A stretch of DNA of 64,000 nucleotides, from contig CAXNCS010000003.1 in the NCBI GenBank assembly GCA_964201005.1, positions 71,180-135,179 on the forward strand. Direction: 5' to 3'. Both the position numbers and the translations under genes were made by a program. Positions 5,236-60,914 of this stretch are shown here, in pieces (within the stretch, counting starts at the first letter, position 1; each line of letters opens with the position of its first letter). The notes below the pieces were generated by a model, which saw only the letters and a program-made list of their open reading frames with translations, had not been told where the DNA came from and searched no databases. The stretch is from Myxococcota bacterium. Lineage in GTDB: Bacteria; Myxococcota_A; UBA9042.

Positions 5236-5436
5236 GATTCCTCGGGTTCGACGCGGGGGACGCCGGCAGGTGGCCACCTGGGGCGCAAAGGGTCAGTAGT
5301 TTACCTGCACAGCAGACCCCTTGCAACGCCACCCGCCGCCAAGCTATTCCAGCGGATCCTTGGCCATGCCCTTGCGCTAACGGCCCCAAACAGGTGCAAT
5401 TGAGCCAAGCGCCCGCCGTGGCGCTGCGAGCCCGCC

Positions 5437-9704: not shown

Positions 9705-9769
9705 CCTAAGATCCTCGGCCGCATGGGGAACCAAAGTCCCGCAGCCTATTCGCGTCGAGCGCAGCTAAC

Positions 9770-13138: not shown

Positions 13139-13281
13139 CGTCGTCCTCCAATTAGGGCAGCGCTGGGCGATCCAGCGGTCCGGAGATTCCGCGCGGCATT
13201 GCGCAGAGGTCGACCGGACAGGGGCTATGTCATCGCACTGCACAGGCGCGCAGGGCACGGGACCGCGACCGGCCCCTTGGC

Positions 13282-15459: not shown

Positions 15460-15737
15460 CCTTTCCTCCGGGCCGTGCACGGTGCGCGCATGAGGCGCCT
15501 GATGAGGCAGCTTGCGCGCGAATTCAACCAGGCGCACCTAAGGCGGTCGCCCGAGCAACGCTGCAGTCTGCCAAGGACTGCCCCACCGCGCAACCTCATT
15601 CTGCGTTCAAGGGCCGCCGGTGGGGACGGCCGTGTGCCAGCCGGTCCTGCGCGGCTTCAGCGGAGCCCAAAACGCCGCACGCCCCGCCGAATCCGCAGAT
15701 CCGCGCGAGGCGTGCGCTTGGGGCTGTGGCGCCGCGG

Positions 15738-15998
15738 TTACTTGAGCAGGCGCTCTTTGGCCGTCTCAATCATCGCCGGGCGAAACGACTTCTTGAGCTT
15801 GAGCAGCTTGTCAAACTTGGCGCGCTGCCGCGATTCCATGTGCAGGGCCGCCGGCTTCTTGACGTCGCCGTCGATCAACTGGTCGCTAAAGTCGTAGAAC
15901 TTGGCCTTTTCTTCGGCCGCGGCGGGGCTGCTGTAGCCCACCGTCAAACCAGACAGGGCCAGGCTTGCCAGGGCCACTACAGCGAGGACTTTCTTCAT
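15738..15998 (-). CDS. Small (86 aa) secreted protein of unknown function
   Basis: This is the in-frame tail of ORF 15738-16349. ATG 15998 gives MKKVLAVVALASLALSGLTVGYSSPAAA/EEKAKFYDFSDQLIDGDVKKPAALHMESRQRAKFDKLLKLKKSFRPAMIETAKERLLK. It has a clean signal peptide, GGAG upstream and good GC3 bias. It sits directly after the TPR gene block. Confidence 0.6.
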   Translation of the reverse strand: MKKVLAVVALASLALSGLTVGYSSPAAAEEKAKFYDFSDQLIDGDVKKPAALHMESRQRAKFDKLLKLKKSFRPAMIETAKERLLK

Positions 15999-18165: not shown

Positions 18166-18189
18166 GGCTGGGATTCTCCTGTGCAAGGG

Positions 18190-21100
18190 CTACTTGGCGT
18201 CGGCCTTGGGCTTGTAGGAAACGGTAAACTTGCCGCGGCGCACGCTGGTGACGAACGCTGCAGAAGTGGCCGGGTCCGAAGACTCGTTGGCCGACACAGT
18301 CGCGGCTGCCTTGGGCAGGTTGGGGTCTTTTTCCACCGTCGGGTACGCGTCCGGATTGACCTTGTACGCGTAATCGCCAGCTTCTTTGGACCACTTGTTG
18401 TACACGCCCAAGTTGTGGGCGATGTTGATGGCGCTCTTGAGCGCGGTGACGGACTGCTCTTCGATCGGCGTCGCCAGCTTCTCGATTTCCAGCTTGTAGG
18501 CGTCTTCCAGCTCGGCGTTGCCGACGATCTGCGGCGGAACCGGAGCGTTGAACAGGTCTTCCTTGAACTTGAAGTACAGCAAACCGATGCGGAAGGCCGC
18601 CGCTGCCGCGTACGCCTTACCGCCGCCGGCAGAGGCCTTTTCAACCACGTCAAAGTAGCGACCTTCGGCCTTCTTGAGCGCCTCGGCCTTCTTTTGCAGC
18701 ATCGGCAGCAGGCCCTTCATGTTCTTGACGCTCTTGAGGGTCAGGACGTCGAAGTCGTCAAAGTCGTACTCGGTGCGATAGAACAGCGCTTGCGCCACAT
18801 AGAACGTCGCCTTGCCGCCCTTGCCGTCGGGCTTCTCATAAGCCTTGGCTGCGGAGTCGGCGGCGGAAATGGCGTCCTTGCGGTTCTTGCCGGCGTCGGC
18901 CAAGCGCAGTTGCTCGGTCTTGCGGCCCAGTGCCTCTACGTGCAGGTCCGGGCGGGCAGGGTACTTGCTGACCACCGCGGCGTAGGAGCCGGCGGCGAGC
19001 TTGGCGCCTTCCACGCCCATTTTCTCGTAGACGTGGCCCTTCTCCATCTCGGCATCGGCGACCAGGCCCTTGAGGCGCTTGGTATTCTCGTCGTCGCCCT
19101 TGAGCGCGTTGGCCACGCCGATGAACTTGTCATACGCCGCCGCCGCACCGCGGTAGTCCTGGAGCGCCGCGAGGATCTGGCCGGCGTTGATCAGCGCCTG
19201 GGCTGCATCGGCGTTGTCGCGGAACTTGGCCATGTCCAAGAAGGCGTCGGCCGCTTCGCGGAAGCTGGTCATCGCCTCATAGAGCATACCGACCTGGAAC
19301 TTGGCCTCGGGGGCGATCTTGGACTTGGGGAACTCCTTGACCACGCGCTCAAACGTGTCGATGGCGACCTTGTCGTCCTTCTGGTCGATGTAGAGCATGG
19401 CCTTGTTGTACAGAGCAATCGCCGCCAACTCCGGCTCTTCGCTCTTGAATTCGCGCAGAATGGTGTCGTACTTGGCATGTGCGCCTTCGTAGTCCTTCTT
19501 CTCCGCCAGCTGGATGGCCTGTTCGGCGACCGAAACTGCAATGTACTTCCGCAGATCCTTGGTCTCGAGCACGATGCGGCTCTTGCGCTTGAGCATCAGC
19601 CGCGCCCACTCTTCGATCTTGACCCAGTCCTTCTGGCGCGCGTAGATGTCGATCAAGCTGCGCACAGCGATCTCAGCGACTTTGTTGTCTTCCTGGTACT
19701 TGTAGACGCGCTCGTAGCCGCTGATGGCCTCACTGTACTGGCCGCGGTCATAGAAGGCCGAGGCGGCGAGGTACATGATCTCCGGGACCATCTTGCCCTT
19801 GCCGCACTGCTTCTTCTTGCCGCCGGTGCAGTCAACTTTGGCCTTCTCCATCAACTCGACGTACTTGTCGGCCGCCTTGACGTACGACACTTCGAGCGGG
19901 TGCAATTCCTGGCGCTTCTTGGGTACCTGGGCGGCCTTGATCTGCTCTTCCGTCAGGTCGGCCTTCTTGTCTTTCTTGACGACGGTGACCTTGACGCCGC
20001 CGCCTTCCACCGTGTCGACCAGCGGCGAGCAGTCAGCCCGCTCTTCCCAGGCCTGCTTCTTGTCGTTGTAGCACGCCTTGGTGTTGCGCATCAGGTTTTC
20101 CGTAGCGTAAATCACGCCCAACGCGGCGTCTTCGACGTACTCGCCACTCGGGTCCAGCTCGATGACGCGCTCGTAGGCGACGCGAGCTCGGTTGAAGTCC
20201 TTGAGCTGGTCGTACAACAATTCCGCATAGTAGAAGTTGACGATGTACGCCTTCTTGCTGTCCGGATAGCGGCGGATGAACTCTTTGTAGTCGTCCGCAG
20301 CCTTGTTGTAGTAGGGCAGCGACTTGGCCGAGTCCTTGGTCTCGTCGTCGGTCTTCTGGGCCAACTGGTGGTAGTAGTTGGAGATGTACAGCAGGTAGTT
20401 CTCGCCGTTGCGCTGGGCCTTGTCGCGGGCCTCTTCAGACTTGGCGTCCTTGCGCTGCTTCATGGCCGACAGCCACGGCGAGGTGCGGTCATCCGTGAAC
20501 GCCAAGAACTTGCGCATCGCCGCTTCGATGTCCGGGAACGCTCCGAGCTTCTTGTAGATGTCGACAATCTGCTCGTGCCACTCGACGCAGCGCGGATCGG
20601 TCGGCTTGCTCTCGATAAAGTGCGTGTGCAGGTCAACCGCGTCTTTGTCTTTGTCGATCGACACGTAGATTTCGCCCAACTTGTACATGCGTTCCCAGGC
20701 CTTGGCCTCGCCTTCGACCGAGATGAAGTACTCCTTGGCCTTGGGCCAGGCGCCGTCGAGCTCGGCATAGGCCTGCACAAGGTCTTTGAGCGCCTGATCG
20801 CGGAACTCGATCTTGCCCTTGTCGCCTTCCTTGCTGATTTCCTTGACCACCGCCTGGAAGGTCTCGATCGTCCGCTGGAATTCGCGCAAGTTGTAGTACA
20901 CCCAACCGAGCTTGTAGAGCGCGTAGTTGTACATCGCCGCATTCTTGAAATTCTGCGTGATCTTCTCGTAGTTCATCTTGGCGAGGGTCAGGTTGTTCGC
21001 CTCAAAGAAGTGCTCGGCCAGCGCCAAGTGGGCTTGCGGGATGAGCGGGCTCGTCTGGAACTTCTGAATCAGCTGATTGAGGTACTGCACGCCCTTTTGC

Positions 21101-21759
21101 GACAGCACTTTGTCGCCCAGCGCCTTGCCCTGCTGCATGCACGCCTTGCCCACGCGGTACAGAATCTCTGAGAGGCGCGGGTAGTTGGGGTACTGCTGCA
21201 ACACCTTCTCGTAATACGAGATCGACTGCTGATAATTCTCCACTGGCTGTACCGGCTTCTCTTTGAGGATGCCTTTCTCAAACTGCTCCATCTTGCGGTC
21301 GTAGTCCGAGCGCTCGAGCAGATAGAGGAACTTGGTCTCTTCCCACCACGCCTCCGCCATGCGGAAGTAGTAGTCGGGGGCGTTGGGATCGCGCGGATTG
21401 CGCGCCAGCAGATCTTCCAGCGTCTTGATCGTCCGCACGCGAATCTTGGACTTTTCCTGCTGCAGCGCCCGCTCTTTGGGGGTAAAGCCCAGCTGGTCGA
21501 GCCGATCGGCGGTGAAGGAGCCTTTCTGCAGGGCATCCTCATCGCGCTTGGGCTTGGCCACTTCGACTTTCTTCTCTTCCTCCACCAGCGAGGTCTTCTT
21601 TTCGACCTTCTTGGTGGCGGCGCCGGCCTCGACGTCTTCTTCCTGGGCCCAAGCGGCCGCGCCACCGGCGACGACGCCCAAAGTGGTGACGAGGGCTACC
21701 AAGCGTCGCCACGGGCGCGAGGCTCCCGAGACGCTGCGCTGCAAGCTGGATTCACGCAT
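18190..21759 (-). CDS. 1189-aa secreted all-TPR protein (size and position of GltD/AgmU-NfsD-type proteins)
   Basis: Signal peptide MRESSLQRSVSGASRPWRRLVALVTTLGVVAGGAAAWA/QEE, then a charged K/E linker, then TPR-like helical repeats throughout (e.g. YALYKLGWVYYNLREFQRTIETFQAVV; YYAELLYDQLKDFNRARVAYERVIELDP; LYNKAMLYIDQKDDKVAIDTFERVVKEFP). Its stop lies 24 nt before the next gene's start. Confidence 0.85.
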   Translation of the reverse strand: MRESSLQRSVSGASRPWRRLVALVTTLGVVAGGAAAWAQEEDVEAGAATKKVEKKTSLVEEEKKVEVAKPKRDEDALQKGSFTADRLDQLGFTPKERALQQEKSKIRVRTIKTLEDLLARNPRDPNAPDYYFRMAEAWWEETKFLYLLERSDYDRKMEQFEKGILKEKPVQPVENYQQSISYYEKVLQQYPNYPRLSEILYRVGKACMQQGKALGDKVLSQKGVQYLNQLIQKFQTSPLIPQAHLALAEHFFEANNLTLAKMNYEKITQNFKNAAMYNYALYKLGWVYYNLREFQRTIETFQAVVKEISKEGDKGKIEFRDQALKDLVQAYAELDGAWPKAKEYFISVEGEAKAWERMYKLGEIYVSIDKDKDAVDLHTHFIESKPTDPRCVEWHEQIVDIYKKLGAFPDIEAAMRKFLAFTDDRTSPWLSAMKQRKDAKSEEARDKAQRNGENYLLYISNYYHQLAQKTDDETKDSAKSLPYYNKAADDYKEFIRRYPDSKKAYIVNFYYAELLYDQLKDFNRARVAYERVIELDPSGEYVEDAALGVIYATENLMRNTKACYNDKKQAWEERADCSPLVDTVEGGGVKVTVVKKDKKADLTEEQIKAAQVPKKRQELHPLEVSYVKAADKYVELMEKAKVDCTGGKKKQCGKGKMVPEIMYLAASAFYDRGQYSEAISGYERVYKYQEDNKVAEIAVRSLIDIYARQKDWVKIEEWARLMLKRKSRIVLETKDLRKYIAVSVAEQAIQLAEKKDYEGAHAKYDTILREFKSEEPELAAIALYNKAMLYIDQKDDKVAIDTFERVVKEFPKSKIAPEAKFQVGMLYEAMTSFREAADAFLDMAKFRDNADAAQALINAGQILAALQDYRGAAAAYDKFIGVANALKGDDENTKRLKGLVADAEMEKGHVYEKMGVEGAKLAAGSYAAVVSKYPARPDLHVEALGRKTEQLRLADAGKNRKDAISAADSAAKAYEKPDGKGGKATFYVAQALFYRTEYDFDDFDVLTLKSVKNMKGLLPMLQKKAEALKKAEGRYFDVVEKASAGGGKAYAAAAAFRIGLLYFKFKEDLFNAPVPPQIVGNAELEDAYKLEIEKLATPIEEQSVTALKSAINIAHNLGVYNKWSKEAGDYAYKVNPDAYPTVEKDPNLPKAAATVSANESSDPATSAAFVTSVRRGKFTVSYKPKADAK

Positions 21760-21857: not shown

Positions 21858-23783
21858 TCAGTTGCCGACCGCGGGGGCCGAACTGGTCTTGCACTTGGAC
21901 TTGAGGAACGAGCGGTAGGCGCCGATCTCGTCTTTCCAGAATTCACCTTCAAACGGCCACTGCATGGCGTCCGAGCCGGCGATCGCCACCGGGCCTTCCT
22001 TGGCCACCGCCTCGCCTTCAGCCGCCGACTTGCCGGCCTGCTCGTCTTCGATCGCCTGCAGGCGGATTTCGTCGAGGTCGAGGCGCAGCTGGGCGAGCTT
22101 ATCCTGATAGGTATCCAGGTCTTTGGCCGCCTGACGCAAGGTCTGCTGGATGACCACACCGGCCTCAGAAATGCGCTCCGTCTTGCGCTGGCCGAGCTTG
22201 GCGAGCATCTCCTGACCAAAGGCGCCGAGCTGCTGCAGGTTGGCCTTGACCACCCGCTCCTCTTTCTCGATCTGCTTGATCGTGTTGTAAAGGTTGTAGA
22301 ATTCGACATTCATCAGCACGGGCGACTGCAGCTGCCGCGGCAATCCGCCGCCCTGCTTGGGCTTGTTCACCGTGGCCAAGAAGGCGTTGTAGAACTCTTC
22401 CGGCTTGCGCGAGCGCTTGAGGAAGTCGCGCAGCGGCGGGGCGAGGACGATCACCCGCTCCTCAAACATCTTCATGGCCTCTTCCGCCTCCGCCGACAGG
22501 CACAGGTTGACGTACGCCGTCGCCTCCAAGATCCACAGCTCCGGGTAGAAGTGGTGGGCAAAGTAGGGGCTGTGCAAGGCGTGAAAGGTACCCAGGGCCC
22601 GCGAGGTGTCGCCTTTGAGGAAGTAGGTCCAGCCGCTCTCATAGAACGCGGTCGCCAGCTTGGGCGAGTTCTTGCTGATCTTCTTGTAGTAGTAGATCGC
22701 CGCGTCGTACTGCTGAATATCGTACGCCAAACGCGCTAGAGCCAGATAGGCCAGATCGACCACCGGCCGGCCATCCGCTTGGGTCTCCGCGGCGAGCACG
22801 GCTTTCTGGAACGCCTCGGCGGCGGCCTTGACTTGGGCACCGGCGAGGCGATCTTCGGCGTTGTCCGGAATCTCCATCAGGCCAAGCAGATACTGGGCGC
22901 GACCATAGTCCAGGCCCTTGTCCGATACCTTCTCCAGGTAGGGGCGCGCGGCATCTTTGACGCCAAAGTCGTTGAGCGCTTCGCCTACAAAGTAGTAGAA
23001 GCCGTCTTGAAACCCCGCGTCAAAGGTATTGACCGACAGCTTGGTCAGTTCTTCAAGCTCCGGCGGGCGATAGATGATCTGCTTGCGCAGGTCGCGCAGC
23101 TGTTGGAACGCGGTGGTAAAGAACATCTTGTCTGAGCCGGCGCGCACCACGTCAAGCAGCGTATCCGCAGCCGACTGAATCAGCCCCGCGCGGGCCAAGG
23201 CGTTGGCGATGCCGTACTTGGCGACGTAGGCCTCGTTGCTGTCCGGAGCGAATGGGATGCCGCCAACGCCGTCTTCGACGAACTTGGTGAACACCTGCAC
23301 GGCTTTGACGAACTCGCCAGAGTTGGCGTAGTCCTGGCCCTGCTTGAGGATCTTGCCGGCAAAGGCCTTGCGCTGGCCCTCTTCGCGGCGCTTCTGCTCT
23401 TCCGCCAACCGCACCGACTCTTCGCGCAGCCGGGCCTCTTCGGCGGCCATCTCGGCGGCGGTCAGCACTTTTTCGGCGGGCTTGTCCACCGGCTTGTCCG
23501 CCGGCTTGGGCGCGGTGCCGGCGCCAGTCGACAGCATGAAGCGGATGAGCTTGTCCGTCGCGCCGCGGCGCTTGAGCTCCATGATCTCCTTGGGCGCCAG
23601 GGCAAACTTGCTGCCGTCCTTGGTGATCTTCTTGATGATCTGATCGTCGGTCGCTTCAGCTTCCAACAGGGCATACACCTGGTCCAGGCTGATGGCCCAA
23701 GCGGGAACGGCCTGACTCGCGGAGACGAGCAGGGCAGCGGCCATGGCCCAAGAGCCCAAGCGGCGGCGGTGGTGAAGGTGCAT
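21858..23783 (-). CDS. 641-aa secreted TPR / coiled-coil protein
   Basis: GGAGGAACC precedes ATG 23783. Signal peptide MHLHHRRRLGSWAMAAALLVSASQAVPAWA/IS. A small N-terminal helical module is followed by a P/A/K linker, TPR-like repeats (RAQYLLGLMEIPDN.., YLALARLAYDIQQYDAAIYYYKKI) and a C-terminal coiled coil (LDTYQDKLAQLRLDLDEIRLQAIEDEQ). Confidence 0.8.
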   Translation of the reverse strand: MHLHHRRRLGSWAMAAALLVSASQAVPAWAISLDQVYALLEAEATDDQIIKKITKDGSKFALAPKEIMELKRRGATDKLIRFMLSTGAGTAPKPADKPVDKPAEKVLTAAEMAAEEARLREESVRLAEEQKRREEGQRKAFAGKILKQGQDYANSGEFVKAVQVFTKFVEDGVGGIPFAPDSNEAYVAKYGIANALARAGLIQSAADTLLDVVRAGSDKMFFTTAFQQLRDLRKQIIYRPPELEELTKLSVNTFDAGFQDGFYYFVGEALNDFGVKDAARPYLEKVSDKGLDYGRAQYLLGLMEIPDNAEDRLAGAQVKAAAEAFQKAVLAAETQADGRPVVDLAYLALARLAYDIQQYDAAIYYYKKISKNSPKLATAFYESGWTYFLKGDTSRALGTFHALHSPYFAHHFYPELWILEATAYVNLCLSAEAEEAMKMFEERVIVLAPPLRDFLKRSRKPEEFYNAFLATVNKPKQGGGLPRQLQSPVLMNVEFYNLYNTIKQIEKEERVVKANLQQLGAFGQEMLAKLGQRKTERISEAGVVIQQTLRQAAKDLDTYQDKLAQLRLDLDEIRLQAIEDEQAGKSAAEGEAVAKEGPVAIAGSDAMQWPFEGEFWKDEIGAYRSFLKSKCKTSSAPAVGN

Positions 23784-23890: not shown

Positions 23891-24856
23891 CTATTCCGCC
23901 GGGGCGGTGAACCAGGTCAGCGAAACGGTGACAGAAACCGGCTTGGACAAACCGGCTGAGGCGTCGTTCTTCACGTCGTCAAAGGCCGGGTAGTAGAGCT
24001 GCTGGATGTTGGCGCGCAGGGCCCAGCGCTCGGCGATGTAGAACTGCAGGTAGGTGCCCACTGAGCCAGCGGCATCAAAGCGGTACGCTGGTTCGATTAC
24101 GCCTTTCTTGGTCACACGGGTGTAAACGCCGCCGATGCCAAAGCTCAGCGCTGCGTCAAACTCGTTGAGGCCCGTGCCAAAAAAGCTGAACTTACCGTGC
24201 ATCAAGTTCCAGTCGACGCCCGCCGTCGTGTAGGCCTGCAGCGTCTGCGGCAACCGCACGTTCAGCTCAAAGCCGTCGGGGCGCTTCGACTGCAGCTTGT
24301 CGCGCAAGGATGTCGGCTGATCGTAGGTGTAGGCACCCTGGACGTGCAGCGCAAGGTCTTCAGAGAAATAGTAATTGTAGCCCACGCCGCCGGTGATGTA
24401 GGTCCAGAAGTCGTCGTTGGGCACCACGCCGCCCAAGAAGGAGACGCTGTGGCGGCCTTCCTTGATGACCGCGCGCTTCTGGATCACTTTGATGTCGCGG
24501 CGCTTGGCCCACTCCATCCGCGCTCCAGGGGGCACCGCGTCGTCGCCGACACCGTAGATGTCTTGGTCGCCGGTTTCGCCCATGAGGTCAGGGGCTTTGC
24601 CTTTGTCCCCGCCCTTGTCCGCTGCCGGCTTTGGCTCGGCTTTTGGCGTTTCAGCTGCGGGGTCCTTGGCGGCGTCGGCGACTGGCGCTTCGGCCGGGGC
24701 TGTTGGATCCGCTGGCTTTTCCGCCGGGGTCTCTTGGGCCAGGGCCGGTACGGCGGCCAGGGCAGTCGCGCCCAACCACGCCGCCAGGCTCAGGCGCCCA
24801 ACCAGTGCGGATCGCCAAGAGCGCCGGGACAGGGGAGAAAGGAAGAAACTGCGCAT
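23891..24856 (-). CDS. Outer-membrane beta-barrel-type protein (321 aa) with a Pro/Ala/Lys-rich N-terminal linker; paralog of 25026-25769
   Basis: ORF 23891-24958, with the start moved to ATG 24856 (MRSFFLSPLSRRSWRSALVGRLSLAAWLGATALAAVPALA/QE). After the linker, amphipathic beta-strand patterning is shared with the neighbouring gene: FLGGVVPNDDFWTYITGGVGYNYYFSEDLALHVQ, NLMHGKFSFFG..FDAALSFGIGGVY, GTYLQFYIAERWALRANIQQLYYP. Confidence 0.7.
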   Translation of the reverse strand: MRSFFLSPLSRRSWRSALVGRLSLAAWLGATALAAVPALAQETPAEKPADPTAPAEAPVADAAKDPAAETPKAEPKPAADKGGDKGKAPDLMGETGDQDIYGVGDDAVPPGARMEWAKRRDIKVIQKRAVIKEGRHSVSFLGGVVPNDDFWTYITGGVGYNYYFSEDLALHVQGAYTYDQPTSLRDKLQSKRPDGFELNVRLPQTLQAYTTAGVDWNLMHGKFSFFGTGLNEFDAALSFGIGGVYTRVTKKGVIEPAYRFDAAGSVGTYLQFYIAERWALRANIQQLYYPAFDDVKNDASAGLSKPVSVTVSLTWFTAPAE

Positions 24857-25025
24857 TTCGAACCTCAGCAGCCGCGGCGGGCCGCCCTCTTGGCAGGGAC
24901 CTTGGGGAGCTGCGGCCGACCTCTGCAGGTGAGTCGCGGCGCTTTGGGGTCCCGTCAACCGCTCGTCTCGCGCCGGTAGGGCGGCTTGCGGCGGCGCATG
25001 GTGAAGTCGCCCGGAGGGCGGATTT

Positions 25026-25769
25026 CTACTTGCTCAAGTAGGCAAGACCGAGGGTGAACTCGGCCGGAGCCAGGAACGAGATATTGTCCTGCGGCTTGTA
25101 CAGGTACTGGCTGTATCCGAGCTGGACGTTGAGAAACCGCGACAGATAGAAGCGGAAGCCAATGCCCCAGTGCCCGCCGACCTTGATGGCATTGACGGGC
25201 TCCTTGTTGCCGCGCGACTCGTCAACGTCGACGTTGATCACGCCCACGCCGCCCGAGAAGTTCACGTCAAAGCTGGTCAGCTTCTTGTCAAAGATGCCCC
25301 ACTTGCCGTGAAAGGGCGTGTAGACCAGGTCCAGCGCGCTCGTCCAGTTCATCTTGGGCGCGGCCTGGGCGCCCCGGGTCAGGACGTTGCAGCTGCCGCC
25401 GCTCGCTGGCACGCACTTGAGGAAGGTGAGGATGTTGGAATCCTCGGCCATGAGGTACTGGAAGCCGCCCTGCAAGGCCAGGGTGTCCGCCAGGTAGTAC
25501 GCCACCCGACCGCCCGCCGTGTAGAACAGGTAAAAGTTGTCGTTGGGGATGGTGCCGAGCTGCACCGAGCCTTCAAAGCCGCCCTTGCGCTCGTAGAGCG
25601 GGTTGGTCAGCGACGGCACGGCCTGGTCGACGTTCCAATACTTGCCCAGCTCGCGATCGATCGGCTCGGCAGATTCTGCCGCCATGGCGGAACTCGCCAG
25701 CGCCCAGGCAGAAACCGTGATCAGGGCTGTCGCGATGGTGCGGCGCAGCGCCCGGTGCATCCAATTCAT
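25026..25769 (-). CDS. Outer-membrane beta-barrel-type protein (247 aa); paralog of 23891-24856
   Basis: GGGAGGAACAGAGG precedes ATG 25769. Signal peptide MNWMHRALRRTIATALITVSAWALASSAMA/AE. Alternating beta-strand patterning: VQLGTIPNDNFYLFYTAGGRVAYYLADTLALQG, YTPFHGKWGIFDKKLTSFDVNFSGGVGVINV, HWGIGFRFYLSRFLNVQLGYSQYLYKP, EFTLGLAYL. Confidence 0.7.
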   Translation of the reverse strand: MNWMHRALRRTIATALITVSAWALASSAMAAESAEPIDRELGKYWNVDQAVPSLTNPLYERKGGFEGSVQLGTIPNDNFYLFYTAGGRVAYYLADTLALQGGFQYLMAEDSNILTFLKCVPASGGSCNVLTRGAQAAPKMNWTSALDLVYTPFHGKWGIFDKKLTSFDVNFSGGVGVINVDVDESRGNKEPVNAIKVGGHWGIGFRFYLSRFLNVQLGYSQYLYKPQDNISFLAPAEFTLGLAYLSK

Positions 25770-25938: not shown

Positions 25939-27930
25939 TCAGCCCTTGCAGACGCCGTCGCACTTGCCGTCGGCTTTGCACGTCCCGCCGCAGCACTTGC
26001 CCTTGCCGTCCGCGCCACAGGGCAGCAGATCCGGCGACGGGTCCGCCACGCACTCGCCCGCGGGGCTGCAGTGGTTGGCTCCGCAGGGATCGCTGCCGCC
26101 GCAGTCGGCGTCGCTGGCGCAGGACAAGTGGAAGATCATGCGGCGATCGCGTGAACCGTCCTGGGTGAACTGCCACTCTTTCTCGTTCTTGAACACTTCT
26201 TTGAGGCTGCTAAACACCGTGGACTGCATGGTCATTTTGCCGCGCATGGCGGTGACGGCGCCCTTCTTGACCGAATCGTCTTTGAAGCGATTGTCCATAA
26301 AGCCAACGCGCCAGTTGCCGGCCAGGGTGTAGCGCACCATGGCGATCGAGCGGCTCATGGCGTCTTGGAACGGGGTCGGGTCCTTGTTGTTCATGTCCAA
26401 GGTGTTGATGAACTGATAGGTGCCTTCCGTGCGGCAAGCGAGGTCCTGCAGAAACGCGTCCGGCTGCGGGTGGGTCTTGGACTGCACTTGGACGACGTGG
26501 AGGCGCACCGGGAACTTGTCGTCGTGCATGACCTGCAGCAACGCCTTGTAATCGGTGGTGATCATTGCGCACTGCTTGCGGCAGTCGCCGCCCTTGCCAA
26601 CCTTGGGATCGACAAATTGGTACAGGTCCGAATAGGTGCAGCTGTCCGGGCCGTCGGTCAGAAGAACGATGTGCCGAGGCGCGCCCGCTCCCAGGTCTTT
26701 GTCGCGCAGGAAGGTGTACGCCGTGTTCAGGGCCTCATACACCGGCGATCGCCCCGTGGCGGCCTCGCGGATGCGCTCTTCCAGACCCAGGCGGTTCTGC
26801 GCCTTGACCTTGTCGGAGCTGCCAAAGCACTTCACCATCTGCTCAGGCTGAGAAAGATTGGCAAAAGAGTCATTGGCAAAGGACGGATCGGCGGCGCACT
26901 GATAGTTGCCCTTGTTGCCGTCCGGGTCGACCAGATCTTTGCAGTCCGCGTTGCTGATGCAGGACTTGGTCGTGACCTCGTTGACGGTGCCGTCGGTGTA
27001 CTGGCAGCGCAGGTCGTCGGTGCACGCCACGCGCACGCCGTCGTTGCTCTCGTCGTAGTACATCGTCAGCACGCGATCGCGGGGATTGAGCGTATCGATG
27101 AGCTGTTGGGCGCCAGCGACGAGCACGCTGTAGCGGTCCGACGAGCACTCCGGGAATGAATCGGGCGTCCACTTGCCGGGCATATCCTCAATGAACTTGC
27201 TGGCCGTGGTGCAGTCGCCGGTGTCGGTGTAGACAAAGCCGTCTGTCGATCCGCTGTGGTCCACGAGGATCGCGACGTTCTGGAAAGTTTCCTTGCGATC
27301 GGGGTCGCACCGATCCGGGGCAACCGCCTTGTATTTAAGGGCCTTGCCCGTACCGCCGGAGCCTTCAGCCGAAGTGCTGCACGTCGCCGGATCTTGGATC
27401 CCAGCGCGCGGCTCATAGCAGCCCAAGTCGAGCTCAAAGTTCGCGGGCGAGATCGTCTGAAGCGCCGGATCGGTGGTGACCGGCTGCTGCTCGATGCGAT
27501 CGCCATCGCGAATGCCCAGATCGACGTCGCCCTCGCACTTGGGGCTCGTGACCTTGAGCTCGGTCGACACGAGGTTGACCGTCAGCTCGACGCCGTTCGC
27601 TTCCAGTACCGGTTCTCCGTCAGCCAGTGGCGCGCCGCAAACCCGGGTCACCGTCTTCGTCTGGGCGTTGACGAACGCCGGAAAGGCCGAGACGACTTGG
27701 ACTTTGTCGAAGATCAAGTTGTCCAGGCCAAAACGCGCGGTCGAGTCGCAGCTCGACAGGCCGCCGGTGATCAACCAAGCGGTGCCAAGGAGCGCGCTCG
27801 CGATCGTCGCCGGGACCCCAAGGCGTCCGCGCGGCTGTCGCGGTGCGGAATCTTGGCCTTGATCTGGGCGGCGCTTAGGGAATTGGGCCTGCGCGTTGGA
27901 ATCGACCTGCGGCTGGGACTGGATGGGCAT
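25939..27930 (-). CDS. 663-aa lipoprotein with a vWA domain and a Cys-rich C-terminal module
   Basis: GAGAGG lies upstream of ATG 27930. Lipobox LITGGLSS/CDS after a charged N-region. The vWA MIDAS-type motif is NVAILVDHSGSTDG, with later RHIVLLTDGPDSC. About 40 Cys overall. The C-terminus reads CASDADCGGSDPCGANHCSPAGECVADPSPDLLPCGADGKGKCCGGTCKADGKCDGVCKG. Confidence 0.85.
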   Translation of the reverse strand: MPIQSQPQVDSNAQAQFPKRRPDQGQDSAPRQPRGRLGVPATIASALLGTAWLITGGLSSCDSTARFGLDNLIFDKVQVVSAFPAFVNAQTKTVTRVCGAPLADGEPVLEANGVELTVNLVSTELKVTSPKCEGDVDLGIRDGDRIEQQPVTTDPALQTISPANFELDLGCYEPRAGIQDPATCSTSAEGSGGTGKALKYKAVAPDRCDPDRKETFQNVAILVDHSGSTDGFVYTDTGDCTTASKFIEDMPGKWTPDSFPECSSDRYSVLVAGAQQLIDTLNPRDRVLTMYYDESNDGVRVACTDDLRCQYTDGTVNEVTTKSCISNADCKDLVDPDGNKGNYQCAADPSFANDSFANLSQPEQMVKCFGSSDKVKAQNRLGLEERIREAATGRSPVYEALNTAYTFLRDKDLGAGAPRHIVLLTDGPDSCTYSDLYQFVDPKVGKGGDCRKQCAMITTDYKALLQVMHDDKFPVRLHVVQVQSKTHPQPDAFLQDLACRTEGTYQFINTLDMNNKDPTPFQDAMSRSIAMVRYTLAGNWRVGFMDNRFKDDSVKKGAVTAMRGKMTMQSTVFSSLKEVFKNEKEWQFTQDGSRDRRMIFHLSCASDADCGGSDPCGANHCSPAGECVADPSPDLLPCGADGKGKCCGGTCKADGKCDGVCKG

Positions 27931-28287: not shown

Positions 28288-28316
28288 TTGACTGTCCATT
28301 GGCGTCTCGGTACATT
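28288..28316 (+). promoter_or_regulatory. Candidate sigma70-type promoter for the three-gene lipoprotein paralog operon
   Basis: TTGACT (28288-28293), a 17-nt spacer, then TACATT (28311-28316), about 70 nt upstream of ATG 28387 in the 455-bp divergent intergenic region. This is a motif match only. Confidence 0.3.
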
Positions 28317-28386
28317 TGTGTGTTCGGGCAAGCCCGTTTTGCAGCCGTCCTGCCACCGCGTCTCTTTCGCCCTCCAGGAGCCCTCG

Positions 28387-30789
28387 ATGACGTCCTCTCT
28401 CTCCCTGCGGACCTCCACCCCGGTTCGATTTCGGGATGTGCTTGCTGGATCGGCGACGACGCTGCGGGCGACGCTGCTCGTGGGCGCTTCGCTGGTTGCA
28501 GCAGCGTGCAGCGACCCTGCGACCGGCACGAACACCGGCACGGGGGCCTCTGCGTGCCTCAACGGCGTGACCGCGGACTGCCGGCCGATCGCCGACATCA
28601 AGTCCGAGACGGCCAACATTGGCCAGGTCAATTCGGAGCAAAGCAAGCTCAGCGGCAACCTGGTCCTGGACGTCGGCGGCGTGGCCCTCAAGGAAAAGTC
28701 GTACCGCACGGTGACCTTGAGCAACTCGGGGAACGTCATTCTTCCGGCTGGTTACAAGATCCGCTCGGTCAGGATGCAGTACGACGCGCAAAATCCGGAA
28801 GAGACCGACATCAAGGCGTTGGAGTGCTGGGACGTATCCGAGACCGTGCCGTGCGACAAGCTCGACAAGGTTTGGAAGACCGTGGCGCCCAAGGGCTACA
28901 CCATCAAGGACGCCGACAAGAGCTGGATGACTTCCGGTGAGTCGTTCGTCATCAAGTACACGGCATTCGACAACAAGGTGCGCACCGGAACTGTGCTGGT
29001 CGAGCTCCAGGGGATCTCCGCGCAGGTGCTGACCTTCTCGATCAACATCAGCACCAAGGCCGGTTCGCCCAAGGCCAATCTCCTTCCGCCGTCGGTCAAC
29101 TACCCCTACGTCAAGCCCAAAGAGTGCGCTACCGAAGTGGTCAAGATGGCCAACACCGGCGACGCCGTGCTCAACATCAGCCAGATCAACCTCTCGGGCG
29201 TCGACAAGTCCTTCCAGATGCGCCTGGTCAAGCCGGAAGACCTCGATACCGAGTGGCACGAAGGCGGGGCGATGTGGACTCTGCCGGCGCCGCTGTCGAT
29301 CAAGCCGTCGAACAGCGCCGACTTTGAGGTCAAGTTCTGCCCGGCCGACGACAAGAAGAAGCAGGGCCAGATCAAGTTCATCGGCAACGACTCTTCGGCT
29401 CCCTCGCTCACGGTGCAGGCCAACAGCTCGGTCCCTTGCATCCAGGTGCTGCCGCCGACGATGAATTTTGGCGGCGCTATCCCGGGTTCTGAGAGCCCGA
29501 TGGATCTGACCATCAAGAATTGCGGCTCTCAGGAGCTGGTGGTGACGGACTTTGTGCTGACCGAGGACACCCAAGACGCCAACCAAGAGTTCTTTATCGA
29601 CCAAACCCCGCTCGCGGCGACCGGCAAAGTCAAAGCGCCGCCGCCGATTTCGGTTGAAAATCCGCTGGTTTTGGGGATCAATGAGCTTGCTGTGGTGACG
29701 GTGAAGTACGCGCCGGCCGACATCTCCAAGGAGAATACCCCCGACACCGGCGAGATTACCGTGGTGTCGAGCGCGTATATCCAGCCCAAGGTGAAGTTGT
29801 CGGGTATCGGCGTCGAGCAGACCTGCCCCATCGCCAAGGTCAAGGTGGCTGAGGGCGAAGAGGTGGTGCCGCAGACCAACTTGCACCTCAACGGCTCTAG
29901 CTCGCTGGCCCCCGGCGGCGGCACCATCAAGAAGTACAAGTGGACGGTCAAGCAGCCGACGGGCTCGAACCAGCCGTTGCTGCCAAGCGCGACTTTTCCC
30001 AACCCCACCTTGCAGGCCAACACGGCGGGCGAGTACGAGTTCTGCCTAGAGGTGTGGGACCAGAACGACGTCAAGTCGTGCGTGCCCGCGTGCACCACCG
30101 TGCTGGTGATCCCCAACAATGCGATCCACGTGGAATTGCTCTGGGATACGCCTTCCGACCCCGACCAGACCGACACGGGCCCGGCCGCTGGCGCCGACCT
30201 CGACCTGCACTTTGCCCATCCGCTGGCTGCGGCCCTCGACATCGACTGCGACAAGTCGGGCGATCCTTGGTTCAGCAACCCCTGGGACGCGTTCTGGTTC
30301 AACCCCAATCCGGCCTGGGGCGCGGCGCCGATCAGCGACGATCCCAGCCTGGACTTGGACGACACGGACGGTGCGGGCCCAGAAAACCTGAACATCGAAG
30401 AGTCGGAAGGCTCGCTGGAAGACCCGGTCTCGTACTCGGTGGGCGTGCACTACTGGAACGACCACGGCTACGGCACCTCCTATGGCACGGTGTCGATCTA
30501 CTTGCAGGGCGGCCTGGCGCTGCAGTTCACCAAGGTCAAGTTGGACCCGCTGGACATGTGGTACGTGGGCAAGCTGAACTGGCCCAACACCATGAGCGGT
30601 GGCCCCAAGAAGCCGTTTGACACCTGCTACCAGACCGGTGCGCCCTTGGTGGCGGACGGCGGCAAGTGCGCATCTGGCCAGAGCGCGATGTGGCAGCCCA
30701 AGGGCGAGTGGTGCGTGACCAAGTGCTATGAAGACAAAGCGTTTGTCCAGTCCGTCGGTGGCGCGGCGGCGGCTTCCTGCAAGAAGTGA
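28387..30789 (+). CDS. Ig-repeat lipoprotein, paralog 2 (conserved C-terminal 'DLDLH / DDTDG.GPEN / VGVHYW' domain plus an extra Cys-containing tail)
   Basis: ORF 28288-30789, with the start moved to ATG 28387 (AGGAG upstream; ..LLVGASLVAAA/CSD lipobox). It has Ig-like repeats (MNFGGAIPGSESPMDLTIKNCGSQELVV) and a PKD-like segment (KKYKWTVKQPTGS..ANTAGEYEFCLEVWD). The C-terminal domain reads IHVELLWDTPSDPDQTDTGPAAGADLDLHFAHP..SGDPWF..DDPSLDLDDTDGAGPENLN..YSVGVHYWNDHGYG..VSIYLQG..DMWYVGKLNWP. Confidence 0.85.
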   Translation: MTSSLSLRTSTPVRFRDVLAGSATTLRATLLVGASLVAAACSDPATGTNTGTGASACLNGVTADCRPIADIKSETANIGQVNSEQSKLSGNLVLDVGGVALKEKSYRTVTLSNSGNVILPAGYKIRSVRMQYDAQNPEETDIKALECWDVSETVPCDKLDKVWKTVAPKGYTIKDADKSWMTSGESFVIKYTAFDNKVRTGTVLVELQGISAQVLTFSINISTKAGSPKANLLPPSVNYPYVKPKECATEVVKMANTGDAVLNISQINLSGVDKSFQMRLVKPEDLDTEWHEGGAMWTLPAPLSIKPSNSADFEVKFCPADDKKKQGQIKFIGNDSSAPSLTVQANSSVPCIQVLPPTMNFGGAIPGSESPMDLTIKNCGSQELVVTDFVLTEDTQDANQEFFIDQTPLAATGKVKAPPPISVENPLVLGINELAVVTVKYAPADISKENTPDTGEITVVSSAYIQPKVKLSGIGVEQTCPIAKVKVAEGEEVVPQTNLHLNGSSSLAPGGGTIKKYKWTVKQPTGSNQPLLPSATFPNPTLQANTAGEYEFCLEVWDQNDVKSCVPACTTVLVIPNNAIHVELLWDTPSDPDQTDTGPAAGADLDLHFAHPLAAALDIDCDKSGDPWFSNPWDAFWFNPNPAWGAAPISDDPSLDLDDTDGAGPENLNIEESEGSLEDPVSYSVGVHYWNDHGYGTSYGTVSIYLQGGLALQFTKVKLDPLDMWYVGKLNWPNTMSGGPKKPFDTCYQTGAPLVADGGKCASGQSAMWQPKGEWCVTKCYEDKAFVQSVGGAAAASCKK

Positions 30790-30981
30790 CCCCGCGGCAT
30801 GGGATCGCGCGGTCTGCCAGTTCTAGGGCGTCACCAGGCGATCCGCGGTCTTGAGAAGAGACAATCCGTTCGATTTGTTGTGCGGGCCTCGCCGCGAAAC
30901 CGCATCGGTGATCTCGGCGACCCACTTAGCAGCGCAAGGGGCAGCCTCAAGCCGTACAGGCGGTCGCCCCGAGGATAGGCC

Positions 30982-33342
30982 ATGAGCGACAGCCTCTTTC
31001 AGCCGCGCCCCGCCCTCAAGGGTCGGAAAGCGTCGGGTTTGACAGGTTTTTTGCGGATTGCCGCCGCAGTAACCCTGTGGGCGGGCCTCAGCAGCTGCAG
31101 CGACGGGACGGACAACGGCGGCGCAGACGCGGCCACCAGCGCCGACGGCAGCAAGGTCAAGTGCAGCTTTGACAACGCCCAGGTCGGCATCGATCGTTCG
31201 GCGCAGTTTGCGGTCAATCTGTATGGCGGCGCGGCGGTCGATGAGGCCAAGCCGATCGCCATCAACAGCGGCACCATTGCGGTGGGGGCGACGGCCGATA
31301 TCTCGCTGGAAATCAAGAATACCGCCAACCTGGCCAGTGCCGCCGAACTGCTGGTGAGCAAGATCAACGTCGTCTACAGCGGCGACGACGGGGCCTTTGA
31401 CTGCCTCGTAGCCGACAAGGACGGCAAGGCGTTGATGGCCGACGGAAAGACGGTGGCGTGCAGCGGATACGATTTTGGCTCGATTGTCCCCGCGGGCTTT
31501 GACCCGGCGTGCGTGAGCAAGGCAGCGAGCACTGCTGGGCGATTCCTCATTCGCTTCAAGAAGATCGACAGCACCGCCCGCTCGGCCAAGGTGGTGGTCG
31601 TGGCCAGCGGCGATACCAGCCGGACCACGGTGACGCTGCAATTGGAGGCCAAGGCCGGCAAGGCCACCATCAATGTGAGTCCAGATCCGCTAGATTTTGG
31701 CGTGGTTGGCGTGGACGGCCCGGGCAAGGCCCAGCAGCTGAACGTGACCAACATCGGCGATGCCGACCTGGAGCTGAGCGGGGTGCAATGGAGCGTGAGC
31801 GACGCCTCATTCACCATGGAAATCGGCGGCCAAACGGTCAAGGGCAATGCCGACGGCAAATTTGCCCCGCCCCTGGTCGTGCCCGCCAAGAAGTCGCTGG
31901 CGGCGAGCATCACTTTTGATCCCGTGGACGACAAAGGCCGCGAGACCACCGTGACCTTCCTGCACAGCGCCACAAGCGGCAAGGCCAGTGCGCTGCTCAA
32001 AGGCAACCTGGAAGTGCCGTGCGTGCTCGTCAAGCCCGAGAAGAAGCTCGACCTGGGCATCGTTTACGTGGGCCAGACGGCGACCAAGAATGTGGTGCTG
32101 GAGAATTGCGGGACGGTCGAAGTTGAGGTGTCTGGCCTGAGCCTCAGCGAGGATGAGCAAAGCGTTTTTGGCTTTGGCGGCAACTTGATCGCGCCGACGC
32201 CGACCTCGCCCATCAAGATCGCCAAGAACGGTAAGGCGACCGTGCCGGTGACCTGCGCGCCGCCGAGTGAGAACAAGACGCCGCAGGGCGAGCAGAAGCC
32301 CTTTACCGCCAAGCTGAACCTCAGCGACAATACGACAAAGCCCAATAAAGTGGTGGATGTGCAGTGCTATGGCACCGCGGCGACGTGCCCAACGGCGGTG
32401 ATTGTGCCGGACCCGGGCGAGCAGATCGAGCCGCAGCAGAAGCTCTGCCTCAAGGGCTCCAGCTCGTTTGCCGCACCGGGAAAGCAGGTCAAAAAGTACA
32501 AGTGGAAGCTGCTGAGCGCGCCCAAGGGTGCGACAGCCCTCAAGTTTGCCCCCAATGATGTGTCGGCGGATGTCTGCTTTGGCACGGACACCGTCAATCC
32601 CAAGACCGGTGCGACCGAGCTGAGCGTGAATATCGCCGGCGAATACGTATTTGAGTTGCAGGTTTGGGATGATGTGGGGACGGAGTCGTGCAAAGTGAGC
32701 CAGATGCCGGTGTTGGTGATCCCGAGCATGGGGCTGCACATCGAGCTGCTGTGGGATACCCCGGCGGATGAGGAAAAGGACACGGGGCCCACCGCCGACG
32801 GCAGCGACCTGGACTTGCACCTGGTGCACCCCATGGCGTACGACGCAAAAACCTGTGACGCGACCACGACAAAGGCGTGTCAGCCGGATCTGGACAAGGA
32901 CGGCAAGACCGACCCGTGGTTCAATTCGGTGTACGACTGCTACTGGTACAACAACACCAATCAGTGGGGCAGCACGTCGTCGGCGGATAATCCAGGGCTC
33001 GACTTGGACGATACCAACGGCTGGGGCCCAGAGAACATGAACATGCAGGCGCCAGAAGACGGCCTAAAGTACGGCGTGGGTGTGCATTATTGGGACAAGC
33101 ACGGCCTTGCTCCGGACGACACCACCGCCACGGTCAACATTTACGTCCTCGGCATGCTCAAGGGGACATTCACCCAGATGATGCACGAATGCGACATGTG
33201 GTGGGTCAAGCAGGTTGCGTGGCCCACTGGCGATCTCCTTGATTTTGGCGGAGCGAGCACCACGGCGACGGGCAAGGTGACCCCCAAATACTGGAGCATT
33301 CTGGGCAGCACACTGGGTGGCGTCTGCAGCAAGCCCAAATAG
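30982..33342 (+). CDS. Ig-repeat lipoprotein, paralog 3 (same C-terminal domain)
   Basis: GAGGA precedes ATG 30982. Lipobox TLWAGLSS/CSDG. Ig-like repeats (LDFGVVGVDGPGKAQQLNVTNIGDADLEL; LDLGIVYVGQTATKNVVLENCGTVEVEV) and a PKD-like segment (KKYKWKLLSAPKG..NIAGEYVFELQVWD). The C-terminal domain reads LHIELLWDTPADEEKDTGP..GSDLDLHLVHP..DLDKDGKTDPWF..DNPGLDLDDTNGWGPENMN..YGVGVHYWDKHG..VNIYVLG..CDMWWVKQVAWP. Confidence 0.85.
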   Translation: MSDSLFQPRPALKGRKASGLTGFLRIAAAVTLWAGLSSCSDGTDNGGADAATSADGSKVKCSFDNAQVGIDRSAQFAVNLYGGAAVDEAKPIAINSGTIAVGATADISLEIKNTANLASAAELLVSKINVVYSGDDGAFDCLVADKDGKALMADGKTVACSGYDFGSIVPAGFDPACVSKAASTAGRFLIRFKKIDSTARSAKVVVVASGDTSRTTVTLQLEAKAGKATINVSPDPLDFGVVGVDGPGKAQQLNVTNIGDADLELSGVQWSVSDASFTMEIGGQTVKGNADGKFAPPLVVPAKKSLAASITFDPVDDKGRETTVTFLHSATSGKASALLKGNLEVPCVLVKPEKKLDLGIVYVGQTATKNVVLENCGTVEVEVSGLSLSEDEQSVFGFGGNLIAPTPTSPIKIAKNGKATVPVTCAPPSENKTPQGEQKPFTAKLNLSDNTTKPNKVVDVQCYGTAATCPTAVIVPDPGEQIEPQQKLCLKGSSSFAAPGKQVKKYKWKLLSAPKGATALKFAPNDVSADVCFGTDTVNPKTGATELSVNIAGEYVFELQVWDDVGTESCKVSQMPVLVIPSMGLHIELLWDTPADEEKDTGPTADGSDLDLHLVHPMAYDAKTCDATTTKACQPDLDKDGKTDPWFNSVYDCYWYNNTNQWGSTSSADNPGLDLDDTNGWGPENMNMQAPEDGLKYGVGVHYWDKHGLAPDDTTATVNIYVLGMLKGTFTQMMHECDMWWVKQVAWPTGDLLDFGGASTTATGKVTPKYWSILGSTLGGVCSKPK

Positions 33343-33351
33343 GATCAGCAC

Positions 33352-37862: not shown

Positions 37863-37969
37863 CCGCGGCTCAGAGGGACGAACCGCGTCCCGGCAGAAGG
37901 CTCCCGAATCTGCGCCAAAGCGGTGGCCGCAGGCGCGATCAAAGTCGCGGGTTTGGGCGCCAGAGAAGT

Positions 37970-37998
37970 TTGACAGCGAATGCGCCGCAAGTTACGTT
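37970..37998 (+). promoter_or_regulatory. Candidate sigma70-type promoter upstream of the PP2C gene
   Basis: TTGACA (37970-37975), a 17-nt spacer, then TACGTT (37993-37998). This is a motif match only and the -10 element is weak. Confidence 0.25.
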
Positions 37999-38086
37999 CC
38001 AGCGAAGGTTCTGCGTTCCGCACCTGCGGCCCGTGGGCGGGTGGGACGGCGGACAGCGACCCAGCGCGGGTTGCCGAGGCGAGGGC

Positions 38087-50160: not shown

Positions 50161-50163
50161 CCC

Positions 50164-51432: not shown

Positions 51433-51456
51433 ACGCTTATGCAATTGGAGGATACG

Positions 51457-52541: not shown

Positions 52542-52544
52542 AGA

Positions 52545-57672: not shown

Positions 57673-57718
57673 GGCCCCGCCGACCACCGCGCCCGCCCTA
57701 GGATGAGAGGAGCAGAAG

Positions 57719-58387: not shown

Positions 58388-58390
58388 GCG

Positions 58391-60462: not shown

Positions 60463-60914
60463 CGCGCCTGGCCGTTGCGCCCCAACCGGCATCCCCTCGC
60501 GGGTTCGCCCGGCGCCGTTGGGTAGCTCTCCACTTGGCCTTCGCCCCCACAGATACGGCTCGCGCCCAACGGGATCAGGCGGCTCCGTCGCTGCTCTGCG
60601 ACTCTCGCTAGTTGTCGAGTTGTTGCAGGACTGCTCCTTAGGGGCATTCTGCAACGCAGTGCGCCTTGCCAGAGCGGCGAACGGCGTGGTATCGTCGGGG
60701 GCTGCGCAGAGCTAGACACGAGCCCGGCGCGTCAGGGCAGGAGCGGAAATACCGCTGCTCCCCCCTCAGCTGCACAGCCCGACCTCCGTCGCGGCGCCGC
60801 AGACCACCCGCAGGAGCGCTTGCGACGGAATTGCCTTCCGTTGCAGCGCCCTACAAGAGCGACAGGCCGGCCGAGTCGGACGCGACCCGCCGCCGCAAGA
60901 AGCCCCGGAGAAGC

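Follow-up and report, generated by a model that had tools for sequence, protein, structure and literature searches.

A cysteine-rich vWA lipoprotein encoded directly upstream of a Glt/Nfs-type gene module in uncultured Myxococcota, and its possible likeness in role to the gliding adhesin CglB

The gliding adhesin of Myxococcus xanthus, CglB (MXAN_3060), is a Cys-rich lipoprotein with a domain of the von Willebrand factor A (vWA) type, which is recruited and shielded by the outer-membrane complex GltABHK (PMC9946355, PMC11761067). Its 416 residues include 17 Cys (4.1%), integrin CR3 (1JLM) has been used as its template, and cglB co-occurs with the Agl-Glt genes in cultured Myxococcales (PMC9946355); its accessory beta-jelly-roll domain matches XD3 of the phage protein TSP4 (7RFV). 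According to the literature, neither cglB nor cglD is clustered with the gliding genes, and cglD is never so placed in complete genomes. The link between CglB and GltABHK in M. xanthus was established by biochemistry only. GltK (CglC, MXAN_2538), a protein of 170 residues, is encoded by the first gene of gltK-gltB-gltA-gltC (PMC3169522), and in the Nfs cluster the D gene stands directly after C (PMC3858216). Here, we describe a 64,000-nucleotide stretch of a Myxococcota genome (contig CAXNCS010000003.1, positions 71,180 to 135,179; hereafter the window), in which the gene of a Cys-rich vWA lipoprotein, referred to below as the target, lies directly upstream of two outer-membrane beta-barrel genes, which homologues of GltC, GltE and GltF and a GltD-like protein accompany. 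From the combined analysis, we judge it somewhat more probable than even that the target is a lipid-anchored, disulfide-rich vWA adhesin belonging to a Glt/Nfs-type envelope module, in parallel to CglB and GltABHK. The target gene and the parts of its product are as follows:

25939..27930, minus strand: vWA lipoprotein gene, 663 residues, ATG start (open reading frame; at least 34 homologues; AlphaFold2 pLDDT 82.7, pTM 0.85)
27748..27822, minus strand: signal-peptide h-region and lipobox, residues 37-61 (LSSC, Cys61 lipidated), then conserved C-D-S-T-A-[KR]-F (sequence, alignment)
27286..27747, minus strand: N-terminal beta-rich domain, residues 62-215, conserved (modelled alone, pLDDT 82.7)
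26326..27285, minus strand: vWA domain, residues ~216-535, with Cys-rich insertions at 236-263, 301-370 and 431-460 (Foldseek with PDB and viral libraries; weak Pfam VWA_3/VWA_2/VWA)
[quoted passage not shown]
26746..26748, minus strand: Ser395 (G-R-S-P), at the MIDAS Thr position (profile-to-TRAP alignment, column counts)
26653..26655, minus strand: Asp426 (LLTDGPD), invariant MIDAS Asp where beta4 ends (model, profile alignment)
25942..26124, minus strand: C-terminal Cys-rich tail, residues 603-663, 11 Cys (alignment; no Pfam match)

An initial annotation, made from the letters of the window alone, had recognised in this gene a lipobox (GGLSS/C), a MIDAS-type motif (VDHSGSTDG), a very high Cys content with a Cys-rich C-terminus, and a size beyond that of CglB, all of which are confirmed, the sequence features being conserved in an alignment of 34 homologues. 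The lipobox G56-G-L-S-S-C61 comes after a hydrophobic stretch (residues 37-57), itself preceded by a leader of 36 poorly conserved residues. Cys61 is invariant (34/34), as required of a type II signal peptide; the conserved D-S-T-A-[K/R]-F that follows has its Asp at +2 in 28 of the 34 sequences. D224 and S228 of the MIDAS-type motif (residues 223-231) are likewise found in 34/34, while S226 is Ser in 31 and Thr in 3. The chain of 663 residues (against 416 with 17 Cys in CglB; PMC9946355) contains 29 Cys, 28 of them beyond the lipid Cys and 11 within the last 61 residues, which amounts to 4.8% of the mature chain, when 15 other proteins of the window have 0.2-3.0%. Almost all Cys columns are invariant in the family, including nearly all of those in the tail. 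Of the variable ones, C240 and C262 are present or absent jointly in 15/16 sequences, and C303 and C368 in 21/21, a pattern of joint gain and loss that is a signature of disulfide partners; hence the target has the high Cys content of CglB together with intramolecular disulfides that are predicted from covariation, and the 28 Cys and their co-varying pairs indicate an oxidising, extracytoplasmic location. Since lipobox, DxSxS and Cys pattern are all kept in homologues, their combination in this one gene is not a matter of chance.

The vWA fold suspected in the initial annotation is clear in an AlphaFold2 model built on the same alignment, in which only residues 1-66 are disordered. Foldseek returned 71 matches in the PDB at E<=1e-3, and every one of them is a vWA domain, among them Catenulispora vWA 4FX5, TFIIH p44/Ssl1, Rpn10, Sec23/24, Plasmodium TRAP, the calcium-channel protein CaV alpha2delta, ITIH1, and integrin I domains including CR3 1JLM; TM-scores, normalised on the isolated vWA domains, range over 0.6-0.72, and the viral fold library likewise yielded vWA proteins only. 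The Pfam gathering threshold is not reached by the target (VWA_3 at 16.5-19.4 bits, cut-off 27), and we therefore assign it to the vWA superfamily because of its fold and not because of a Pfam score. The model has DxSxS closing strand 218-224 and T-D426-G closing strand 419-425, both canonical places for these MIDAS elements. When the family profile was compared with the sequences of PDB entries, the vWA domain of TRAP was the best match (E 0.012), and the alignment places the family's G-R-[S/T/A]-P-L-W on G-R-T-N-L of TRAP, where T is the MIDAS Thr, and TDGPD on TDGiPD. Four of the five MIDAS ligands are thus conserved in the family and the fifth, at the Thr position, is variable. Within the mature target, conservation is lowest in insertions 236-263 and 301-370. 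No PDB fold match at E<=1e-3 was obtained for the N-terminal domain (residues 62-215) modelled alone, the jelly-roll of the CglB type included, and neither this domain nor the Cys-rich tail has a Pfam match; the N-terminal domain may be a new fold or else an incomplete domain needing C-terminal strands.

The genes next to the target on the same strand, in the order in which they follow it, are listed below:

25026..25769, minus strand: outer-membrane beta-barrel 1, 247 residues (TIGR04565 OMP_myx_plus, 71.9 bits, cut-off 60; syntenic in 42/51 loci)
23891..24958, minus strand: outer-membrane beta-barrel 2, 355 residues, barrel residues 177-350 (TIGR04565, 69.2 bits; closer loci only)
21858..23783, minus strand: GltC/NfsC-like tetratricopeptide repeat (TPR) protein, 641 residues (NF033756 gliding_GltC, E 6.4e-52, model 146-620 of 622, below the equivalog cut-off)
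18190..21759, minus strand: GltD/NfsD-like TPR protein, 1189 residues, assigned by size and position (multiple YbgF/BamD-type TPR matches; conserved position)
16108..18186, minus strand: GltE/NfsE-like TPR protein, 692 residues (NF033758 gliding_GltE, E 9.2e-18, below cut-off)
15738..15998, minus strand: GltF/CglF-like small secreted protein, 86 residues (NF033764 gliding_CglF, E 5.5e-11, profile 25-87 of 88)

As the initial annotation had stated, the target gene stands first in this block and is followed by two barrel genes, after gaps of 169 bp and then 67 bp. By their TIGR04565 scores, both barrels are OMP_myx_plus proteins of the GltA/B (NfsA/B) type, and the Glt/Nfs identity of the neighbours is further borne out by the GltC (6e-52), GltE (9e-18) and GltF/CglF (5.5e-11) matches. 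Scores of the GltC-, GltE- and GltF-like proteins below the equivalog cut-offs make these homologues, and not orthologues by the NCBI standard, and the protein in the GltD position matches only generic YbgF/BamD TPR models among the family models. The open reading frame of the GltF/CglF-like protein, with its 86 residues, is overlooked by lists with a 200-residue cut-off; a GltF-like gene with the motif KFYDFSDQLID also comes after the GltE-like gene in distant loci. Throughout the block, all genes lie on the minus strand with intergenic gaps of 3-169 bp, and a terminator scan found no minus-strand terminator-like site between them. Read along the strand, barrel-barrel-C-D-E-F runs collinear to nfsA-F, and also to gltBA-C and gltD-F of M. 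xanthus (PMC3169522, PMC3858216), and as judged from sequence and order, the downstream block is a collinear Glt/Nfs-type A-F module.

The target defines a small family of its own. When 1.84 billion representative proteins were searched exhaustively with its profile, 234 members were found at E<=1e-3, with no spill-over into generic vWA proteins at that threshold among the matches listed; those members that are named belong to uncultured Myxococcota or 'Deltaproteobacteria' and are called only 'hypothetical' or 'vWA domain-containing', and none of the cluster names is informative. Scanning one genome per species brought up 56 loci, every one of them in a metagenome-assembled genome (MAG), many from lakes (Mendota, Erken, Baikal, Zurich), and no family locus in cultured myxobacteria; one of the 56, L001, is 98% identical to the target and belongs to a Myxococcota MAG of Lake Mendota. 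When the proteins of the window were mapped onto the loci by tblastn, 51 of the 56 had enough downstream sequence for the comparison, and in 42 of these 51, all uncultured Myxococcota MAGs, one or more barrel genes lie directly downstream of the vWA gene. The initial annotation had made its proposal depend on such linkage recurring in other genomes, and the linkage does recur. Beyond the barrels, GltC-, GltD- and GltE-like genes follow in the 42 linked loci as far as the contig reaches.

The linkage of vWA and barrel genes persists in relatives of only 24-28% identity, which have one barrel gene and in which CglD-like and Ig-like (immunoglobulin-like) genes stand divergently upstream of the vWA gene. 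A single barrel, between the vWA and GltC-like genes, is found in L040, L043-L048, L051-L053, L055 and L056, and a CglD-like gene upstream in L040, L043-L048, L053 and L055. The pairing of barrels, as opposed to the linkage itself, thus applies to the window and the closer loci and not to the deeper relatives; the single-barrel state of the latter makes the two-barrel state look like a later duplication, which the vWA-barrel linkage predates. Over 21 two-barrel loci, the vWA protein averages 39% identity to the window, the barrels 49-53% and the GltC-, GltD- and GltE-like proteins 58-65%, the order that is expected for exposed versus periplasmic parts, and across the same loci the identity of the vWA protein tracks those of the barrels and GltC (Spearman 0.82-0.84).

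In the reading that we favour, the target would be a secreted, lipid-anchored and disulfide-stabilised protein, the core of which would act as a ligand-binding vWA domain resembling the I domain of integrins. It would be co-transcribed, and would work together, with one or two OMP_myx_plus barrels and with periplasmic GltC-, GltD-, GltE- and GltF-like proteins, and its destination would be the outer membrane, where the barrel platform would hold or present it, as GltABHK does CglB. The vWA face would then bind a ligand outside the cell, be it substratum, polymer or a further cell, and would probably do so via a metal-dependent site, while force or movement made elsewhere would reach the lipoprotein through the periplasmic TPR proteins.

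Several observations weigh against this reading. Unlinked paralogues of the vWA gene occur in nine loci (L002, L011 with two tandem copies, L022, L031, L032, L034, L042, L049 and L050), some of them lengthened at the N-terminus by a Cys-rich segment that precedes the conserved part; except for L050, the same MAG also has a linked copy or, for L042, one cut by the contig end. At the MIDAS Thr position the target has Ser395, 25/34 close homologues have Ala, and distant ones have Thr or Ser, so that in much of the family, binding that depends on a metal may have become weaker or disappeared. In Escherichia coli, Asp at +2 after the lipid Cys is a signal for inner-membrane retention, and the conserved Asp +2 of the target resembles it. 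In M. xanthus, retention at the inner membrane uses Lys +2 and not Asp (PMC3222651). No gene for AglRQS/TolQR, the TonB-like GltG, GltH, GltI, GltJ or GltK is in the 64-kb window, the Glt set of the window and of 10-kb flanks comprising A-F homologues only; since the genes of the motor and of GltG-K are thus not in the window, a gliding function is one that we infer, and by analogy with M. xanthus GltG, GltH and AglRQS may be encoded elsewhere in the genome. Finally, no named gliding adhesin is among the matches listed for the homologue, exhaustive profile and NCBIfam searches, and no CglB-named protein is among those for any of the seeds (the target, a 79-sequence profile and an Anaeromyxobacteraceae relative) or for the exhaustive profile search. 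The 'CglB-like arrangement' of the initial annotation accordingly stands as regards the vWA fold, the Glt/Nfs-type neighbours and the linkage, and is not supported as regards a sequence link to CglB and a conserved MIDAS Thr. Compared with CglB by the published description, the target appears CglB-like in function and arrangement, and is not an established member of the CglB family.

Other genes of the window extend the picture of a locus rich in secreted proteins:

13282..15537, minus strand: Ig-like/PKD/choice-of-anchor-D lipoprotein, 751 residues, paralogous to the three divergent genes below
9770..13693, minus strand: CglD-like/MIDAS-adhesin-like large protein, at most 1307 residues (NF033765 gliding_CglD, E 2.2e-10, CglD 640-875; NF052240, E 5e-14)
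7710-9734, minus strand: further Ig-like lipoprotein, after the CglD-like gene
28288..35574, plus strand: three divergent paralogous Ig-like/PKD/choice-of-anchor-D (lipo)proteins of 833, 786 and 740 residues

The large CglD-like protein has choice-of-anchor-D/Ig domains, with the CglD and Bdellovibrio MIDAS-adhesin models matching its C-terminal part, and its gene probably starts downstream of where it overlaps the preceding one. Kinship of the target with this neighbour was considered and rejected, BLASTP being not significant and only short C-x-x-D-x-DC motifs being common to the two. Altogether, five paralogous Ig-like/PKD/choice-of-anchor-D proteins flank the module (~670-830 residues, 1-3% Cys, mostly with a lipobox), and in most loci the divergent trio is likewise present upstream of the vWA gene. 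Encoded at 3196-5277 (minus strand) is a lipoprotein (Rcas_1661 family, 256 bits) that has three DsbA/thioredoxin-like domains and, in L005, a homologue 5 kb upstream of the vWA gene; it is a candidate helper in forming the disulfides of the Cys-rich secreted proteins of the window. On the plus strand, a matrixin-type metalloprotease weakly similar to the myxosortase-dependent MXAN_2677/2678 family (896-2989), a PP2C phosphatase (37796-39022), a Ser/Thr kinase with a PEGA domain (60666-62981) and a complete type II secretion system (T2SS) cluster (45419-59932), with GspD secretin, GspE, GspF, pseudopilins, T2SS-J/K and a PilM/GspL-like gene, are encoded; the T2SS cluster is 17.5 kb from the vWA lipoprotein gene. 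The remainder of the window consists of housekeeping genes besides the T2SS cluster and the kinase.

Rather unlikely, in our estimation, is that the target is a true orthologue of CglB, highly diverged and enlarged by an N-terminal domain and a Cys-rich tail, the gene of which stayed beside those of the platform and moved away in Myxococcus. The two proteins do have a common kit of lipobox, vWA domain with DxSxS...D, ~4-5% Cys and extra beta-rich parts (PMC9946355), the target is associated with Glt-type barrels and GltC, and the 76 matches at E 1e-30 to 1e-3 that lie outside the matches listed could include CglB. Orthology is opposed by the lack of a CglB-named protein among the matches listed, including those of the search seeded with the Anaeromyxobacteraceae relative, and by NCBIfam, which gave no match to the target even at E<=10, the MIDAS adhesin model NF052240 included, and none to ten distant relatives. 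The 79-sequence profile did not extend the hit list. Further points on this side are that in the genome scan the family loci are confined to MAGs and never found in cultured Myxococcales, and that the N-terminal domain has no PDB match, the CglB jelly-roll not being recovered. Forms of ~420-440 residues in the exhaustive search, which would have been bridges of the size of CglB, were rejected as truncated fragments of the same architecture.

The position of the target gene raises two further possibilities, since it is that of gltK and no separate gltK-like gene is present in the window, so that either a GltK-like role or a single chain uniting GltK and CglB can be conceived. The single chain, which we regard as unlikely, would have the lipid-anchored N-terminal domain of novel fold docking on the barrel or barrels in the manner of GltK, with the vWA domain and the Cys-rich part serving as adhesin; the locus would then be a minimal, self-contained operon of adhesin, platform and transducer, reduced to one barrel in the deepest relatives, and would be older than, or parallel to, the dispersed arrangement of Myxococcus, a corollary which we put forward with equally little confidence. 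Quite doubtful is the alternative of a periplasm-facing structural lipoprotein in the slot of GltK, the vWA domain of which would make protein-protein contacts inside the machine and not adhere to anything outside. Its place exactly in the gltK position, 5' of the barrels (PMC3169522), with no separate GltK-like gene in the window, is what such a protein would occupy, Ala stands at the MIDAS Thr in most close homologues, and vWA domains often serve complex assembly, as in the TFIIH p44, Rpn10 and Sec23/24 matches. The target is, however, the fastest-evolving component of the module, and it combines a very high disulfide load with variable Cys-rich insertions round the vWA core, as in exposed adhesins. 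Unlinked extra paralogues in the same genomes are, moreover, typical of adhesin repertoires, and a recent model puts even GltK on the external face (PMC11761067).

We hold it similarly improbable that the module is an Nfs-like surface transporter or organiser, for instance of a polysaccharide or coat, in which the vWA lipoprotein would be a polymer-binding cargo adaptor with no part in motility. Such a non-motility role in surface transport would fit the Nfs-like traits of the module: the order barrel-barrel-C-D-E-F matches nfsA-F rather than the split glt clusters (PMC3858216), no I, J or K paralogues are nearby, as in Nfs, the window is without motor or cytoplasmic gliding genes, and the hosts are planktonic-lake MAGs. 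Against this, no vWA partner is known for Nfs, no G or H homologues come after F, unlike in nfs, and a CglD-like adhesin and several Ig-like lipoproteins in the block fit adhesion better. Very improbable is a pullulanase-like route, raised by the conserved Asp +2 and the T2SS 17.5 kb away, in which the target would be a T2SS-exported 'Lol-avoidance' lipoprotein and free-standing surface adhesin, its barrel linkage reflecting co-regulation only, for although the Asp +2 of the conserved C-D-S-T-A (28/34) has its like in surface lipoproteins that depend on a T2SS, pullulanase among them, the T2SS cluster at 45419-59932 is complete, and CglB itself reaches the surface independently of Glt (PMC9946355), lipoproteins are retained at the M. 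xanthus inner membrane by Lys +2 and not Asp (PMC3222651), and the T2SS lies off beyond housekeeping genes.

Returning to the reading of the target as the adhesin of a Glt/Nfs-type module, the principle of a vWA lipoprotein adhesin with a barrel platform and TPR transducers has been described before, which is not known to hold for this protein family or for its linked and reduced architecture; our literature search found no description of a vWA lipoprotein gene clustered with Glt-type genes in uncultured Myxococcota. The recurrence of a Cys-rich vWA lipoprotein tied to Glt-type barrels and GltC-F in about 40 loci, down to ~25% identity, constitutes evolutionary evidence that is independent of the biochemistry of CglB, and lends support to adhesin plus platform being a general design. 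In addition, it brings a CglD-like protein into the same cluster, unlike the reported placement of cglD, defines a previously unannotated protein family with ~234 representatives, and extends Glt/Nfs-type machinery to abundant uncultured freshwater Myxococcota. Simpler versions, with one barrel, collinear A-F and no K, may ease the reconstitution of how small barrels hold and expose a lipoprotein, and if a single chain did replace GltK and CglB, they would provide a reduced model of force passage across the outer membrane.

Among the known systems, CglB resembles the target most: both are lipoproteins of the outer-membrane type with DxSxS...D in a vWA domain and extra beta-rich parts, both are Cys-rich (4.1% in CglB, 4.8% in the target) and, for the target by prediction, disulfide-dependent, and both are associated with outer-membrane barrels and GltC, a partnership that is functional for CglB (PMC9946355, PMC11761067) and, for the target, seen in the gene order. 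The target differs in adding an N-terminal domain of ~150 residues with no known fold and a 61-residue Cys-rich tail, in large Cys-rich insertions within the vWA domain, in the residue at the MIDAS Thr position, which is Ser in the target itself and Ala in most of its close homologues, in the place of its gene directly upstream of the barrels when cglB is elsewhere in the genome, and in a distribution that is limited to uncultured lineages in the scan of one genome per species. GltK shares with it a lipoprotein gene immediately 5' of the barrel genes and GltC, and in its mature form (~150 residues) is about the size of the N-terminal domain of the target (PMC3169522); by its description, GltK is without a vWA domain. 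The Nfs system of M. xanthus (nfsA-H) is similar in being one collinear cluster of barrel, barrel, C, D, E and F with no I, J and K paralogues (PMC3858216), and differs in having G and H, in lacking an associated vWA lipoprotein or CglD-like gene, and in serving the assembly of the spore coat. The beta-integrin-like CglD and the Bdellovibrio MIDAS adhesins (Bd0875 family, NF052240) are likewise vWA/MIDAS lipoproteins, used at moving contact sites (10.1101/2023.10.19.562135, PMC11003981), the models of which match the 1307-residue neighbour and not the target. Apicomplexan TRAP and the integrin alpha-I domains, finally, are eukaryotic transmembrane proteins with a full DxSxS...T...D MIDAS and only 9-13% identity, yet they provide the best matches of the vWA domain at the level of sequence (TRAP, E 0.012) and of fold, and they are adhesins that pass on motor force during gliding.

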